Assembly (NCBI GenBank): GCA_040905715.1
Contig: JBBDRA010000003.1
Span: forward strand, 71,075 to 135,074
Source: Minisyncoccota bacterium
GTDB taxonomy: Bacteria; Patescibacteriota; Minisyncoccia; Phycocordibacterales; CSBR16-193
Reading direction: 5' to 3'
DNA length: 64,000 nt
The position numbers and the translations under genes are program-made. The first letter of the stretch is position 1. Each line of letters begins with the position of its first letter. Shown one piece after another: positions 7,080-10,802 of the stretch. The notes beneath the pieces are model-generated. The model ran no database searches and had not been told where the DNA came from. It saw only the letters and a program-made list of their open reading frames with translations.

Positions 7080-8549
7080 TGATTCATTCTTAACTTAAGA
7101 GTTTGATCCTAGCTCAGGATGAACGCTGGCGGCGTGGATAAGGCATGCAAGTCAAGGGGCTCTTCGGAGCACCGGCAAACGGGGTAGTAACACGTAGGTT
7201 ACGTACCCAGAAGTCGTGAATAGCCCGAGGAAACTCGGGGTAATACACGATACGCCTTCGGGTGAAAGATTTATCGCTTCTGGAACGGCCTGCGGGATAT
7301 CAGCTTGTTGGTAGGGTAAAAGCCTACCAAGGCTATGACGTCTAGGGGAGGTGAGAGCCTGACCCCCACCATTGGAACTGAGATACGGTCCAAACACCTA
7401 CGGGTGGCTGCAGTCGAGAATCATTGTCAATGGACGAAAGTCTGAACATGCGACGCCGCGTGGTTGATGAAGTCCTTCGGGGCGTAAAAACCTTTTCTGG
7501 AGGAGGAAGTTTATTGACGTTACTCCAGGAATAAGGGGTTGCTAATCATGTGCCAGCAGCAGCGGTAACACATGAACCCCAAGCGTTATCCGGATTTATT
7601 GGGCGTAAAGGGTGCGTAGGCTGCTCTGTTAGTCTTTTGTCAAAGACCTCAGCTTAACTGAGGAATGGCAAAGGAAACGGCAGAGCTCGAGGATGTGAGA
7701 GGTATACGGAACTCATGGTGTAGAGGTGAAATTCGTTGATATCATGGGGAACACCAAAGGCGAAGGCAGTATACTGGCACATTCCTGACGCTGAGGCACG
7801 AAAGCCAGGGTAGCGAACGGGATTAGATACCCCGGTAGTCCTGGCCCTAAACGATGTCCGCTAGCTTTTCGGAGTATCGACCCTCTGAGAGGCGAAGCTA
7901 ACGCGTTAAGCGGACCGCCTGGGTATTACGGCCGCAAGGCTAAAACTCAAAGGAATAGACGGGGGCTCGCACAAGCAGTGGAGCATGTGGTTTAATTCGA
8001 TAATAAGCGAAGAACCTTACCAAGGCTAGAAATTCAGCTGTGGGTTCCTAGAAACAGGAACCGTCTTCGAGATCGCTGAACAGGTGTTGCATGGCCGTCG
8101 TCAGCTCGTGGCTTGAGCTGTTCCCTTAAGTGGGGTAACGAGCGCAACCCTCATTGCCTGTTATACGTGTCAGGCGAGACTGCCCGGTCCTCCGGGAGGA
8201 AGGAGAGGATGACGCCAGGTCAGCATGACCCTAGACGCCTTGGGCTACACACATGCTACAATGGCGAGGACAACAGGATGCGACGGGGTAACCCTGAGCT
8301 AATCCTTATAAACCTCGCCCCAGTTCGGATTGTGGGCTGCAACTCGCCCACATGAAGTTGGAATTGCTAGTAATCGCAGGTCAGCCATACTGCGGTGAAT
8401 ACGTTCTCGAGCCTTGTACTCACCGCCTGTCAAGTCAAGGAAACTGAGAGTACCCGAAGTCCCGCCTCTGGCGGGCCGAAGGTAAATTCAGTAACAGGGA
8501 CTAAGTCATAACAAGGCACGGCTAGCGGAAGCTGGTCGTGGAAATATCC
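7080..8549 (+). rRNA. rrs: 16S ribosomal RNA (divergent)
   Basis: It starts at AGAGTTTGATCCTAGCTCAG and contains universal motifs including GTGCCAGCAGC, GGATTAGATACCC, the ACGAGCGCAACCC region and TGTACTCACCGCC. Helix 45 is intact with a GGAA loop. The 3' tail is atypical. Confidence 0.92.
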
Positions 8550-8769
8550 ATTTTTCTGAGTTCGCCACCGGTGAACTCAGTGAAACGGTCGGTCCTGCAC
8601 CTCGATCGAGTGCAGGAAAAATCCTTCGTGGCGTATGTCATGAAGGGCAAAGGTTTTGGTCTCGGAGCCTCAAGTCGAGATCATGTGGACGGAACGAAAG
8701 AGAGAAGAATTGTCTAAGATCCTCATTGTTGACAATCAGCAATGGGGATTTTGTATTCAGCTTCTTCCC

Positions 8770-8798
8770 TTTACAATAGAGCGTATGTATGCTATACT
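8770..8798 (+). promoter_or_regulatory. Candidate sigma70 promoter (TTTACA-N17-TATACT) for the small-ORF/FlgM-like operon
   Basis: TTTACA sits at 8770-8775 and TATACT at 8793-8798 with a 17-nt spacer. Confidence 0.4.
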
Positions 8799-8853
8799 TG
8801 CTTTCTATTGTTAAAGTTGTTCTTTTTAAACCACCTACGCTCACGGAGGATCC

Positions 8854-9030
8854 ATGAGTACACCCCAACACATTCGTAGTCTTCTGGGTATGAAGAAGGT
8901 TGCGGAAAAACAGCTTCGAGAGCAAGAGCAGAATCCGGATCGCCGCGGTGGCGAACCGGAAGCAATCGGTACTATTGCCAAGCGTGAGCTGGATCGCGTG
9001 ATCCACGAGCATCGCAAGGCAAGCAACTGA
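8854..9030 (+). CDS. Small hypothetical protein (58 aa); not in the ORF track because it is under 60 aa
   Basis: It runs ATG 8854 to TGA 9030 (MSTPQHIRSLLGMKKVAEKQLREQEQNPDRRGG...). It sits directly upstream of the FlgM-like gene, whose GGGAGG site follows its stop codon. Confidence 0.3.
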   Translation: MSTPQHIRSLLGMKKVAEKQLREQEQNPDRRGGEPEAIGTIAKRELDRVIHEHRKASN

Positions 9031-9042
9031 GGGAGGATCGCT

Positions 9043-9243
9043 ATGTCAGGAACGGACTCAGGGGATTCCCAAGGACGGGAACGGAATGATGATCTCGATA
9101 TGGATCGGGCGGCACAGACAGTGCGTCGGGTGAAAGCTCAGATCGAACAAGGGACGTATCCGGACATTCCCGAAAATCACATGCTCGAGCAGTGCTTGGT
9201 TCCGCTTGCTCGGGACATGGGATATGCCCATCTCACTGATTGA
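9043..9243 (+). CDS. FlgM-like anti-sigma-28 factor domain protein (66 aa)
   Basis: The C-terminal 'VRRVKAQIEQGTYPDIPENHMLEQCL' matches the FlgM C-terminal sigma-28-binding motif (RV..LK.AI..G.Y.VD...IAD.L). It is preceded by GGGAGG with a 7-nt spacer. Confidence 0.5.
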   Translation: MSGTDSGDSQGRERNDDLDMDRAAQTVRRVKAQIEQGTYPDIPENHMLEQCLVPLARDMGYAHLTD

Positions 9244-9310
9244 TCCTGGGGCGGAGGCGGAGGAGAAAGAAGCATCTGTCGGAGGGTCCATTTGGTCCGA
9301 TCGCTGATGC

Positions 9311-9347
9311 AAGACCCTGATAGGCAACTATCAGGGTCTTTTTTTGT
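9311..9347 (+). terminator. Rho-independent terminator after the FlgM-like gene
   Basis: A 13-bp stem (aagaccctgatag / ctatcagggtctt) with a gcaa loop is followed by TTTTTT. Confidence 0.7.
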
Positions 9348-9351
9348 ACTA

Positions 9352-9380
9352 TTGACAATATACTATATTAATAGTATGAT
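9352..9380 (+). promoter_or_regulatory. Sigma70-type promoter (TTGACA-N17-TATGAT) for the GH108 muramidase operon
   Basis: TTGACA sits at 9352-9357 and TATGAT at 9375-9380 with a 17-nt AT-rich spacer. Confidence 0.5.
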
Positions 9381-9434
9381 TATATCAGATATAACCAGGG
9401 TGGTTATTGCCGTTATTTTCAAACAGGGAGTTTA

Positions 9435-10040
9435 TTGATGCGATATACGATGCTGCTTCTTACGTTAGTTGTCACGACTATGGTTGCGACAACCGCTTTC
9501 GCAGACGAAACACCGGAGACGACGTTTCAGAAAGCGACGGCATTTGTGCTCGATTCTGAGGGTGGCTACAGCGATCATGTTGCAGACACCGGAGGTGCTA
9601 CCAACTATGGAGTTACTCAGGTCGCCTACGATTCCTGGCAAGATTCTTTGGATAAGAGGCGTCGACCGGTTTCCCAGATCGAGTTGTGGGAAGTCAAAGG
9701 CATTTATTATGCTTACTGGCTTGAGGCTCGTTGCTATGAGATCGAGGAGGTTTCTCCGGCGCTAGCGATCGCTCATTTTGACTGGGCGATCAATGCGGGG
9801 CCATCACAGGCGATGCGAACGCTTCAGCGGTGCATCGGGACCGAAGCTGACGGCATTTGGGGTCCGAAAACCCGTGCTGCATTTCTGAAAAGCGATCCGG
9901 CAGAGGTGCTCGAGGAGTATTTCGAGCGCCGCGAGCGGTTCTACCGGAGTCAGCCTGAAGAGCGACGCGACGCGTTTCTCTCTGGCTGGCTGAATAGACT
10001 CGATAAACTTCGAAATTTTCTATCAGATAGGGAAGAATAA
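9435..10040 (+). CDS. Secreted peptidoglycan hydrolase: GH108 lysozyme domain + PG_binding_3 domain
   Basis: It has a signal peptide (MMRYTMLLLTLVVTTMVATTAFA). The GH108 signature is 'EGGYSDHVADTGGATNYGVTQ'. The C-terminal 'GIWGPKTRAAF' fits a PG-binding-3 domain. Confidence 0.7.
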   Translation: MMRYTMLLLTLVVTTMVATTAFADETPETTFQKATAFVLDSEGGYSDHVADTGGATNYGVTQVAYDSWQDSLDKRRRPVSQIELWEVKGIYYAYWLEARCYEIEEVSPALAIAHFDWAINAGPSQAMRTLQRCIGTEADGIWGPKTRAAFLKSDPAEVLEEYFERRERFYRSQPEERRDAFLSGWLNRLDKLRNFLSDREE

Positions 10041-10207
10041 TGGTGCTCAGAATTGAAGAAAACGAAACCGGCGGATGGAATGCGGAAGTTGTACATGAAG
10101 AAGATCAGCAGATTAAGGTGGCAAAGAAGGACGGGGTTGGGGGAGTCTTCCTCTGCCTTCTTGTCGCAACCCTGGTCATCCTGATTCTCTTGGCAGCTGT
10201 CTGGTAA
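10040..10207 (+). CDS. Small membrane protein (55 aa) with a C-terminal TM helix, translationally coupled to the muramidase (stop/start overlap TAATG)
   Basis: The ORF MVLRIEENETGGWNAEVVHEEDQQIKVAKKDGVGGVFLCLLVATLVILILLAAVW is followed by a strong terminator. It is not in the ORF track because it is under 60 aa. Confidence 0.4.
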   Translation: MVLRIEENETGGWNAEVVHEEDQQIKVAKKDGVGGVFLCLLVATLVILILLAAVW

Positions 10208-10229
10208 TGAGAATGAATCGACTCTCGAA

Positions 10230-10262
10230 GAACGTTTGCTCCGGCAAGCGTTCTTTTTTATT
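10230..10262 (+). terminator. Rho-independent terminator
   Basis: A 10-bp stem (gaacgtttgc / gcaagcgttc, one G-U pair) with a tccg loop is followed by TTTTTTTATTTTT. Confidence 0.7.
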
Positions 10263-10402
10263 TTTATTGCATTGATTATGACGGTTTCTTGTCTGAAAGA
10301 GGGATTTTTGGTAGTGTAGGCGGGTGTGAGGGTATTTCTATATGGCGTGTAAGTAAACTTGCTTTGCCGGCGCTCGGACGAAACGATAACTAGTTCTCGA
10401 TC

Positions 10403-10721
10403 GTTCCTCACTTGGCAAAGTAAGCAGAGCTTTCACACGCTTCACTCAGACGAAATGCCGCTTGGCGCTTGAATGCATTTGCCTTTCAGAAATTATTTGT
10501 GTGCAAGCACCCAAAATTTCTTCAATGCAAATGCGCTCACTATCGTGAGCAGCGCCTCGCTCCTCATTTGCGCGTGTAAGCAAAGCTTTCACGCGCGGCA
10601 CTCGCGAGTCATGCGAGAGCGAGCACAGCTCTCTTCAGCTTCACTCGGGTAACACTGTGAGCAAGCTCCCGTGTTACCCTCGCTTGCTGAAGATCTGGCT
10701 CTCGCACGACGTCGCTCACTT
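10403..10721 (+). repeat. Cluster of tRNA-5'-half-like repeats (CTCAYTTG-N6-TAAGCAAAGCTT) and palindromes upstream of tRNA-Ile
   Basis: Units start at about 10406 and 10562. Each mimics the tRNA leader 'gctcacttg' + acceptor 6-mer + 'TA' + a D-arm-like 'AGCaaAGCTt'. Several perfect hairpins lie between the units. Confidence 0.6.
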
Positions 10722-10797
10722 GCGCGTGTAGCTCAGCTGGTAGAGCATTCGACTGATACTCGAAAGGTCCCAGGTTCGATCCCTGGCACGCGCACCA
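10722..10797 (+). tRNA. tRNA-Ile (anticodon GAT), CCA encoded
   Basis: A manual cloverleaf fold gives acceptor GCGCGTG/CACGCGC, D-arm GCTCAGCTGGTAGAGC, anticodon loop CTGATAC and T-arm CCAGGTTCGATCCCTGG. The length is 76 nt. Confidence 0.9.
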
Positions 10798-10802
10798 TAA
10801 AA

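Follow-up and report, generated by a model that had tools for sequence, protein, structure and literature searches.

Unlinked and reordered rRNA genes in a Candidatus Paceibacterota genome, with a protein-coding insert between 16S and tRNA-Ile(GAT)

Layout of the rRNA genes and its distribution in related loci

Analysis of a stretch of 64,000 nucleotides (hereafter the 64-kb window) from a member of Candidatus Paceibacterota (CPR) with a tiny genome led to a 16S rRNA gene followed by protein genes and tRNA-Ile(GAT), a layout that is very probably best explained by the unlinked and reordered rRNA genes that are normal for this Paceibacterota clade. The full-length bacterial SSU rRNA is located at 7091-8553 (+) (Rfam over the 64-kb window, 1409.6 bits, model positions 1-1533) and tRNA-Ile(GAT), with its CCA encoded, at 10722-10797 (+; ARAGORN and Rfam), with four ORFs between them, as the original prediction had described. 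It had also claimed that neither a 23S nor a tRNA-Ala lies 3' of the 16S, and this holds throughout: Rfam and ARAGORN detected no LSU rRNA, 5S or tRNA-Ala in the whole 64-kb window, and a 23S motif scan of it was negative. The absence of a 23S from the window is partly an edge effect, because its left edge cuts off the 5S and the 3' end of the 23S, which are 2.3-2.9 kb further out. A search beyond the window located both upstream on one Logan contig (L002), which is the source for the 23S location in this genome; in an exact overlap it is 100% identical to window 1-7127, reaches further upstream and bears the 3' end of the 23S (1-141) and, at 503-610, the 5S, which shares the strand of the 16S and ends 9.36 kb 5' of it. 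The predicted unlinking of the 16S from the 23S stands in that no 23S follows the 16S, but the 23S-5S is not elsewhere in the genome, being located ~9.4 kb upstream in the same orientation. Unlinked rRNA genes are known in Patescibacteria (Brewer et al., bioRxiv 10.1101/705046), and by the criterion of these authors the present ones are unlinked, with no 23S within 55 kb 3' of the 16S in the window (Rfam, motif scan) and the 23S 3' end 9.8 kb upstream of the 16S start.

The genes form a block on one strand in the order 23S-5S, ~9.4 kb of protein genes (VWA, FtsW, sugar transferase, epimerase, M29 peptidase, SecD and SecF), 16S, a variable insert, tRNA-Ile(GAT) and pyruvate kinase (PK). The same order, from 23S-5S through VWA-FtsW...SecD-SecF, 16S, insert and tRNA-Ile to pyruvate kinase, was found in the related loci L100, L110, L133 and L134, while L012, whose 16S is only ~85% identical, retains SecD-SecF-16S-GH108-tRNA-Ile-PK. 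Long-contig relatives have one 23S-5S and one 16S within this block. Rfam placed a 23S after the 16S in none of the 28 long related loci, and the motif scan in none of all 121. tRNA-Ile lies 3' of the 16S in 50 related loci with a spacing of 190-3100 nt (it follows the 16S in 23 of 40 loci whose downstream sequence extends for 3.2 kb or more), and the longer spacers hold varied, unrelated protein genes. A tRNA-Ala follows the 16S in only 3 of 121 loci; in the present locus only tRNA-Ile does, and the canonical spacer pair Ile(GAU)+Ala(UGC) was rejected. Comparison with related genomes shows a layout common to the whole clade, and since it is both clade-wide and already described it can be regarded as ordinary.

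In Borrelia burgdorferi the rRNA locus consists of 16S, tRNA, protein genes, tRNA and then 23S-5S, and it resembles the present locus in that protein genes and a spacer tRNA separate the 16S from the rRNA gene that comes next, and in that the rRNA genes are transcribed as separate units (here by prediction). However, the 23S follows there within a few kb of the 16S, whereas here the 23S-5S is upstream and none lies within 55 kb downstream; a Borrelia-like expanded 16S-23S spacer was ruled out, as the 23S is not downstream of the 16S in the window or in the related loci. Thermus, Rickettsia, Helicobacter and Buchnera have split operons too, with separate 16S and 23S-5S units. They share with the present locus a 16S unit that stands by itself, with a promoter and a processing stem of its own (here predicted ones), and a 23S and 5S kept together, but their units are usually far apart, while here they are ~9.4 kb apart, in fixed order and with conserved intervening genes. 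Concerning CPR, 27 of 34 circularised genomes have unlinked rRNA genes, the 16S lying nearer to the 5S than to the 23S in about half (Lui et al. 2021, PMC8172020). The present arrangement is like these in that many kb of protein genes separate the 16S from the 23S-5S on the same strand, the 16S is nearer the 5S than the 23S, protein genes occupy the former spacer, and the layout is clade-specific and conserved; nothing essential differs, the additions being the VWA-FtsW...SecD-SecF block and the tRNA-Ile retained after the 16S. In strand and distance it agrees with the class "unlinked by distance, same strand", which is defined by a 16S >2 kb from the 23S-5S and by intervening genes unable to form one operon (PMC8172020, Fig 3D). 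It represents a well-documented case of 16S and 23S-5S ~6-10 kb apart, in swapped order and with conserved cell-envelope/secretion genes between, and the conserved block constrains how the operon broke; 16S-tRNA-Ile may, for example, have transposed locally, or a tandem duplication may have been followed by reciprocal loss. Methods based on 16S-ITS-23S long amplicons and operon-based binning will miss this clade.

The insert between 16S and tRNA-Ile

The first two ORFs of the insert encode 58 aa (ORF58, 8854-9030, +) and 66 aa (ORF66, 9043-9243, +) and are preceded by GGAGGATC and GGGAGGATC, respectively, with GGAGG motifs that are present at no other called gene start (gene calls inspected, window-wide scan). 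Homologues were not detected for either, and neither matched the phage genomes searched. ORF58 contains zero strain differences, and ORF66 two strain SNPs (9198 and 9231), both synonymous at third codon positions. A predicted intrinsic terminator (9311-9340, +; 13-bp stem and T-run) and the predicted promoter of the muramidase unit (9352-9380, +; TTGACA-17-TATGAT, 11/12) lead to the third ORF (9438-10040, +), which encodes a predicted secreted, endolysin-like GH108 muramidase with a PG_binding_3 domain (Pfam, 3.7e-19 and 1.7e-11; PF05838 at 69.5 bits against a cut-off of 21.2, PF09374 at 44.6 against 24.6) and, by inspection, an N-terminal signal peptide. Its structural matches are PDB 7DNP, 2IKB and 6V3Z, and the catalytic-region motif SEGGYSDHVADTGGATNYGVTQ aligns to 7DNP; by score and motif the predicted protein is a member of the GH108 lysozyme family. 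With known GH108 muramidases (phage endolysins, Salmonella TtsA-like, Neisseria NMB1012) it shares the combination of GH108 and PG_binding_3 and the EGGY...D.GG.T..G[IV]T motif. It differs from them in its Sec-type signal peptide, in place of which L012 has an N-terminal TM anchor, and in its location, a chromosomal rRNA-tRNA interval without phage genes where the partner, ORF55, matches no holin family. ORF55 (55 aa, 10040-10207, +) has a C-terminal hydrophobic segment, and its start overlaps the GH108 stop (TAATG); Pfam, PHROG and further searches gave no family match, and it is not present in L012. A second predicted intrinsic terminator is located at 10227-10256 (+). The ORFs had been predicted to have promoters and terminators of their own, and this is borne out by the two terminator-like hairpins and the near-consensus muramidase promoter, but not securely for the first ORF pair, because its promoter-like match (8770-8798) shares sequence with a hairpin that runs into a U-run (8769-8830, +), a probable 16S terminator; the site may be read either way.

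The interval might alternatively be a recent mobile-element or prophage remnant, in which the ORFs would be a phage lysis module (endolysin and holin) or the scar of an integrative element at tRNA-Ile. The GH108 gene does match phage endolysin family phrog_315 at 1e-37 and is followed by a small overlapping ORF with a hydrophobic C-terminal segment, ORF58 and ORF66 combine GGAGG motifs with a lack of detected homologues, and downstream of the tRNA there is a 16-nt direct repeat of its 3' end (TCCCTGGCACGCGCAC, 10953-10968, +) together with an inverted copy of its T-arm (CAGGGATCGAACC, 10850-10862, -). Such an origin is nevertheless improbable: a GH108 orthologue, 51% identical, occupies the same 16S/tRNA-Ile slot in L012, no integrase or capsid gene, nor any other recognisable phage gene, lies in the interval, its GC (0.49-0.52) is not deviant, and ORF58 and ORF66 are unmatched in phage genomes. 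A lysis cassette or prophage remnant was rejected with ORF55 matching no family and with the 16S, a tRNA and housekeeping genes as neighbours; a tRNA-targeted integrative element was rejected as well, since the tRNA repeats enclose only 157 nt without any ORF, and lie 3' of the tRNA, not around the cassette. Comparable copies of the tRNA-Ile 3' end were found 99-235 nt 3' of tRNA-Ile in 7 related loci, and fragments of its 5' and 3' ends are repeated around the gene in 10 of 51 clade loci.

Returning to unlinked and reordered rRNA genes as the preferred explanation, the simplest reading would be that tRNA-Ile is the tRNA left over from the ancestral 16S-23S spacer and that it kept its place close to the 16S as protein genes entered the gap time after time. 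The variable 16S/tRNA-Ile distance and the unrelated protein genes fit a former spacer tRNA parted in this way. Because GH108 is found in the same slot of so distant a relative as L012, its insertion appears to be old; the muramidase gene, with its own promoter and terminator, would have entered before the split from L012, and the three small ORFs without detected homologues would have joined later. The earlier proposal that protein genes invaded the ancestral spacer agrees with the variable spacers of the clade, but the invasion is neither recent nor peculiar to this genome. A break originally falling between tRNA-Ile and tRNA-Ala is unsupported, as no tRNA-Ala is located directly 5' of the 23S in L133, L134 and L136.

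The 16S transcription unit and its 3' tail

The 16S appears to be an independent transcription unit, judging from a predicted promoter, a leader-trailer stem and a terminator-like hairpin. The promoter, of consensus sigma-70 type (6821-6848, +; TTGACA-16-TATAAT, 12/12), is the likely site from which the 16S would be made, and an equivalent one (TTGACA-16-TACAAT) lies 5' of the 16S in L012. The predicted pre-16S processing stem pairs a 5' leader strand (6967-6987, +) with a 3' trailer strand (8683-8703, +) over 21 continuous bp (the match reported by local BLAST is 19 nt), and this helix may serve 16S processing. Its motif UUUUGUUCCGUCC / GGACGGAACGAAA is repeated in the leaders and trailers of L012, L018, L037, L099, L066 and L058, and the trailer is conserved with L012 as far as ~8706. 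The transcript would end at the hairpin at ~8769-8830; a clean terminator hairpin occupies the corresponding relative site in L012. A terminator predicted after the 5S and the consensus promoter before the 16S suggest that 23S-5S and 16S are separate transcription units; separate promoters, and not co-transcription, would then balance the amounts of 16S and 23S, and it is there that rRNA stoichiometry in these reduced genomes would be set.

The 3' tail of the 16S is GGAAAUAUCCAUUU, and when aligned with the Rfam model it has no CCUCC anti-Shine-Dalgarno (anti-SD); almost all of 120 related loci have non-canonical tails. SD motifs are absent from the host genes (gene calls inspected; window-wide GGAGG scan), which fits a ribosome without anti-SD. 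A Parcubacteria subgroup has been described whose 16S has no anti-SD and whose members mostly do not have uL1 (Tsurumaki et al. 2022, PMC9297842), and the present 16S, from a host in Parcubacteria/Paceibacterota and with the CCUCCU motif missing from its 3' end, resembles theirs with no difference noted. Published work already covers both the unlinked rRNA genes of CPR bacteria and the loss of the anti-SD in Parcubacteria, and no new question is opened here. The missing anti-SD might point to a decaying or secondary copy (pseudogene), with a canonical 16S-23S operon elsewhere in the genome, but this is very unlikely in view of the full-length model match, the strain alignment without differences in the 16S, the conserved leader-trailer stem, the same tail type over ~120 related loci, the host genes without SD motifs and the single 23S-5S and 16S in the block of long-contig relatives.

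Assembly support and surroundings of tRNA-Ile

Other assemblies cover the locus piecewise: L001 corresponds to window 6800-9441 at 100% identity and L011 to 9411-10310; L004 follows the window as far as 10262 and resumes at 10777 on the same scaffold, after a 100-N gap over 10263-10776, while L005-L008 start within the tRNA (window 10741 or 10777) and continue into the exchanger gene downstream. Three assemblies made from different samples agree exactly at the junction of 16S and cassette. In all, the junctions recur in two MAG assemblies besides the window's own and in several Logan contigs. Another 100-N gap of L004 falls on the other repeat array (window 13553-13710), and the coincidence of its gaps with repeat arrays suggests that repeats, not mis-joins, cause them. 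A contig chimeric at the conserved 16S end or the tRNA, with a false 16S-cassette-tRNA-Ile adjacency, would account for the breaks of short-read assemblies at 10262 or 10310 and at 10741 or 10777, and for a 16S tail that looks truncated at first sight without the expected CCUCC, but it is highly improbable given the identical junction, the L004 scaffold joining both sides of a gap that falls on a repeat array, the same order in L012 and L133 from unrelated samples and lineages, and the fact that such tails are clade-wide and published (PMC9297842). The independent assemblies and the order in L012 and L133 argue against mis-assembly within 8.5-10.8 kb, which would have refuted the original prediction. 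Care is needed with contigs ending at rRNA/tRNA repeat arrays.

The array before tRNA-Ile (10341-10721, +) is the stretch left unassembled in other MAGs. It consists of four degenerate, strongly structured units (core ~75 nt, units ~74-159 nt, z = -6.3), a copy number that rests on the window's own assembly, in which alone window 10311-10740 was found; the core is possibly tRNA-derived. In this genome the repeat family occurs only beside stable-RNA genes: tRNA-Ile has four copies in front of it and tRNA-Leu three, and copies also follow the 5S. Every unit spans AGCAAAGCTT to CGCTCCTCAYTTG; in front of it stands an 8-12-nt stretch copied from a stable-RNA gene, in most cases the neighbouring one, with a fixed GTA at the joint. 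A small mobile/recombinogenic element or a shared processing signal targeting stable-RNA genes is a rather doubtful reading of this family, to which plain decay of tandemly duplicated tRNA genes is the alternative. The signal scan found no recognisable promoter for tRNA-Ile, which is followed by a perfect 19-bp hairpin between A/T runs (10797-10839), a predicted bidirectional terminator, and by a terminator-like hairpin at 10971-11003 (+). The cation antiporter gene that had been predicted from 11066 is indeed there, as a Na+/Ca2+ exchanger family gene (Na_Ca_ex, 11066-12028, +); its -10 box ends 7 nt 5' of the ATG, so that the mRNA is probably leaderless, and the gene does not belong to the rRNA locus in L012.

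Gene order and assembly support

Rfam analysis led to a full-length bacterial 16S rRNA gene on the forward strand at 7091-8553 (1409.6 bits, model positions 1-1533), while ARAGORN placed tRNA-Ile(GAT) on the same strand at 10722-10797. No 23S, 5S or tRNA-Ala gene was detected by either tool in the whole 64 kb. Between 8300 and 11100, the end of the 16S and the tRNA were the only Rfam matches at E-values up to 10, with no hidden rRNA fragments or other known RNAs. The original prediction of a 16S followed by tRNA-Ile, with four ORFs between them and no 23S in the window, is therefore real and correctly placed (Rfam, ARAGORN and ORF calls), and the cation antiporter gene expected from 11066 was confirmed by family match as Na_Ca_ex. 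The lack of a 23S holds for the window only, as the 23S-5S pair was found upstream of the 16S, just beyond the left edge. A Logan contig (L002), identical to 1-7127 and reaching 2877 nt farther upstream, bears the 3' end of the 23S (L002 1-141) and the 5S (L002 503-610), with a terminator located after the latter. The 5S ends at about -2267 in window coordinates, 9.36 kb ahead of the 16S start and on the same strand, and the genes for VWA, FtsW, a sugar transferase, an epimerase, M29, SecD and SecF lie between them.

Three alternative readings of the locus, namely mis-assembly, a recent prophage or integrative-element insertion and a pseudogene 16S copy, are all disfavoured. Mis-assembly over 8.5-10.8 kb would place a false join between the 16S and the tRNA, and the locus was reproduced there by other assemblies of the same population, the sole part confined to the window's own assembly being 10311-10740. 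Specifically, L001 (GCA_040879545.1) is 100% identical to 6800-9441 and the Logan contig L011 to 9411-10310, while four further contigs (L005-L008) begin within the tRNA (10741 or 10777) and run on into Na_Ca_ex. The assembly GCA_040876875.1 (L004) matches the window to 10262 and resumes from 10777 after a 100-N scaffold gap, and has a second break at 13553-13710 (100 nt in L004 vs. 158 nt in the window). At both 100-N gaps the window has an array of the same repeat family, one before tRNA-Ile and one before tRNA-Leu, which suggests that repeats rather than chimeric joins are the cause.

Conservation of the layout among relatives

The source organism belongs to Candidatus Paceibacterota, i.e., CPR/Parcubacteria, according to protein names and a SecF scan of genome contigs, which yielded one relative (L009) whose contig stops directly after SecF. 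A 51%-identical GH108 homologue led to a distant relative, the ENA contig L012, with a 16S about 85% identical to that of the window. Its order is FtsW, sugar transferase, epimerase, M29, SecD, SecF, 16S (7681-9161), GH108 (9710-10369) and tRNA-Ile(GAT) (10615-10688), followed by further genes, pyruvate kinase and tRNA-Leu(CAG); it lacks the Na_Ca_ex gene as well as ORF58, ORF66 and ORF55. Since L012 carries the same arrangement, the 16S-GH108-tRNA-Ile layout without a 23S is, judged from these sequences, an old one. Other distant relatives keep the order of the rRNA genes and of the genes between them: in L100 and L110 the 23S-5S pair precedes the genes from VWA-FtsW to SecD-SecF and then the 16S (with tRNA-Ile after it in L100), and L133 and L134 show the same order with complete 23S genes. 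No tRNA-Ala was found directly upstream of the 23S in L133, L134 or L136, another related locus. The predicted unlinking of 16S from 23S stands in that no 23S lies downstream, but the reading was partly mistaken, as the 23S-5S pair sits just outside the left edge and the state is ancient and clade-wide.

A 28-nt helix-45 sequence common to the window and L012 was used as bait and recovered 120 metagenome loci, giving with L012 a survey set of 121. Motif scanning detected no 23S downstream of the 16S in any of the 121 loci, and in none of the 28 with long downstream flanks did Rfam detect an LSU rRNA beyond the 16S. tRNA-Ile(GAT) lies 3' of the 16S in 50 surveyed loci, at a distance of 190-3100 nt; of the 40 loci whose downstream sequence reaches 3.2 kb or more, 23 have it there. 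In 11 loci it has the opposite orientation, and tRNA-Ala follows the 16S in just three. Of the 28 loci whose upstream sequence is long enough, 10 have SecF before the 16S. Spacers of at least 1 kb carry unrelated genes, judged by eye to encode small membrane, large transporter-like membrane, protease-like and other proteins, and GH108 is present only in the window and L012. Earlier work describes unlinked rRNA genes as frequent in Patescibacteria (bioRxiv 10.1101/705046); in about half of the CPR genomes compared the 16S is nearer to the 5S than to the 23S, and protein genes within CPR rRNA spacers have also been noted (PMC8172020). The locus is therefore a further, well-resolved example of a described kind, and any remaining novelty lies in a stable-RNA-associated repeat family and SD-bearing ORFs without detected homologues.

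Enlarged rRNA genes occur in some relatives: the 16S reaches about 1.76-1.85 kb (L110:11377-13227, L037:4487-6250) and the 23S about 3.3-3.9 kb (L133:2477-6400), indicating insertions inside them. In L110, about 1 kb separates the 23S from the 5S. tRNAs or tRNA-like sequences were noted in relatives at L134:2600-2789 and 5307-5384 and at L133:6591-6663: a tRNA separates the 23S from the 5S, Met(CAT) being that of L134, and two tRNA-like sequences (Gln, Ser) within the 23S coordinates of L134 presumably lie within an insertion in that gene.

Genes and signals between 16S and tRNA-Ile

The 16S tail (8541-8553) reads GGAAAUAUCCAUUU and lacks the CCUCC anti-Shine-Dalgarno. The anti-SD is missing in nearly all 120 related loci, which have non-canonical tails such as GGAUUAAUUCCAAUUGGA, the sole near-canonical one being that of L025; according to published work, about half of Parcubacteria have 16S genes without it (PMC9297842). 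An anti-SD displaced by an insertion near the 16S 3' end was rejected, with no CACCTCCTT on the forward strand from 4461 to 33623. In line with this tail, called genes around the locus are without SD motifs; in many of them a TATAAT-like box stands right before the ATG, and those inspected, ORF58 and ORF66 apart, look leaderless. ORF58 (8854-9030) and ORF66 (9043-9243) are each preceded at SD spacing by GGAGGATC (8840-8856 and 9029-9045), with GGAGG 4 nt and 6 nt from the ATG, respectively. Among the GGAGG-plus-start sites detected in the window these two alone sit at called or listed gene starts, although some of the internal sites may be genuine starts. The small unit after the 16S in L012 has GGAGG 7 nt ahead of an in-frame GTG, and the small ORF at this place showed no similarity to the small ORFs of the window.

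ORF58, ORF66 and ORF55 gave no matches in Pfam, PHROGs or NCBIfam, and ORF58 and ORF66 none in phage genomes. Searched against 5.8 billion proteins, ORF66 returned itself alone, while a full HMMER search with ORF58 returned itself and two weak matches to very long proteins, taken to be compositional. ORF58 and ORF66 are nonetheless conserved between strains, which differ at 2 positions in their 390 nt, both third codon positions and synonymous, whereas the next 194 nt contain about 20 differences. The terminator and intergenic stretch after ORF66 (9271-9346) is a hotspot, with about 20 changes and indels relative to L004, and the flanking ORFs are almost invariant. The third gene (9438-10040) encodes a GH108 protein with a PG_binding_3 domain and, by inspection, a signal peptide; it matches PDB entries 7DNP, 2IKB and 6V3Z and the endolysin family phrog_315 (1e-37). 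The ATG of ORF55 (10040-10207) overlaps the stop codon of GH108.

The prediction that these ORFs have their own promoters and terminators was supported for GH108, with a promoter match (11/12) at 9352-9380 and a strong terminator-like hairpin at 10227-10256, but not fully for ORF58/ORF66, which are followed by another strong hairpin of this type at 9311-9340. The 16S is probably a separate unit: a predicted promoter (12/12) lies upstream of it at 6821-6848, and its leader (6967-6987) would pair with the trailer (8683-8703) over 21 consecutive predicted bp. A duplex-fold survey of leaders and trailers gave long noisy duplexes and was reduced to the conserved core motif alone, which was found again in several relatives. 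The trailer is conserved with L012 as far as about 8706, and a hairpin plus U-run at about 8769-8830 is the probable end of the 16S unit; as it overlaps a promoter-like match at 8770-8798, the promoter of ORF58/ORF66 is uncertain. At the equivalent place L012 has a clean hairpin and then a 12/12 promoter. No promoter was recognised for tRNA-Ile.

Repeats, tRNA fragments and other features

The region at 10263-10721 folds much better than shuffled sequence (z = -6.3), and its part at 10341-10721, upstream of tRNA-Ile, comprises four degenerate units of a repeat whose core measures about 75 nt, with the motif AGCAAAGCTT...CACTCRGACGAAA...CGCTCCTCAYTTG. Besides these four, copies occur after the 5S (L002:662-742) and, three in number, before tRNA-Leu (13532-13757). 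The family is genome-specific, with no copies detected in the other loci, and is found only beside stable-RNA genes. A short piece (8-12 nt) of a stable-RNA gene, in most cases the neighbouring one, stands before every unit and ends in GTA, and the repeat resembles a decayed tRNA. A tandem 156-nt tRNA duplication was rejected, since neither MAFFT nor TRF gave support for a clean array of that kind and later alignment favoured the core of about 75 nt.

Downstream of tRNA-Ile, a 16-nt copy of its 3' end (10953-10968) and an inverted T-arm fragment (10850-10862) were identified. Such 3'-end copies lie 99-235 nt downstream in seven other loci (L029, L041, L068, L078, L098, L102 and L118), those of L098 and L118 taking in the entire 3' half, starting at the anticodon loop, and an inverted 3'-end fragment is often located between the intact tRNA and its copy. 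They look like att-site scars, though without an integrase. A clade-wide acceptor minihelix upstream of tRNA-Ile was not convincing (4 of 51 loci vs. 0.8 expected, control maximum 3).

Elsewhere in the window, an RNase P RNA match at 55928-56403 extends over 476 nt, against 367 positions in the model, and at 100.5 barely reaches the gathering score of 100. This suggests that the RNA has diverged or expanded, as has been described in CPR bacteria (PMC8172020). Finally, the block at 26000-31000, with a GC content of 0.39-0.41 vs. about 0.48-0.52 elsewhere and most ORFs on the minus strand, may be an acquired island.
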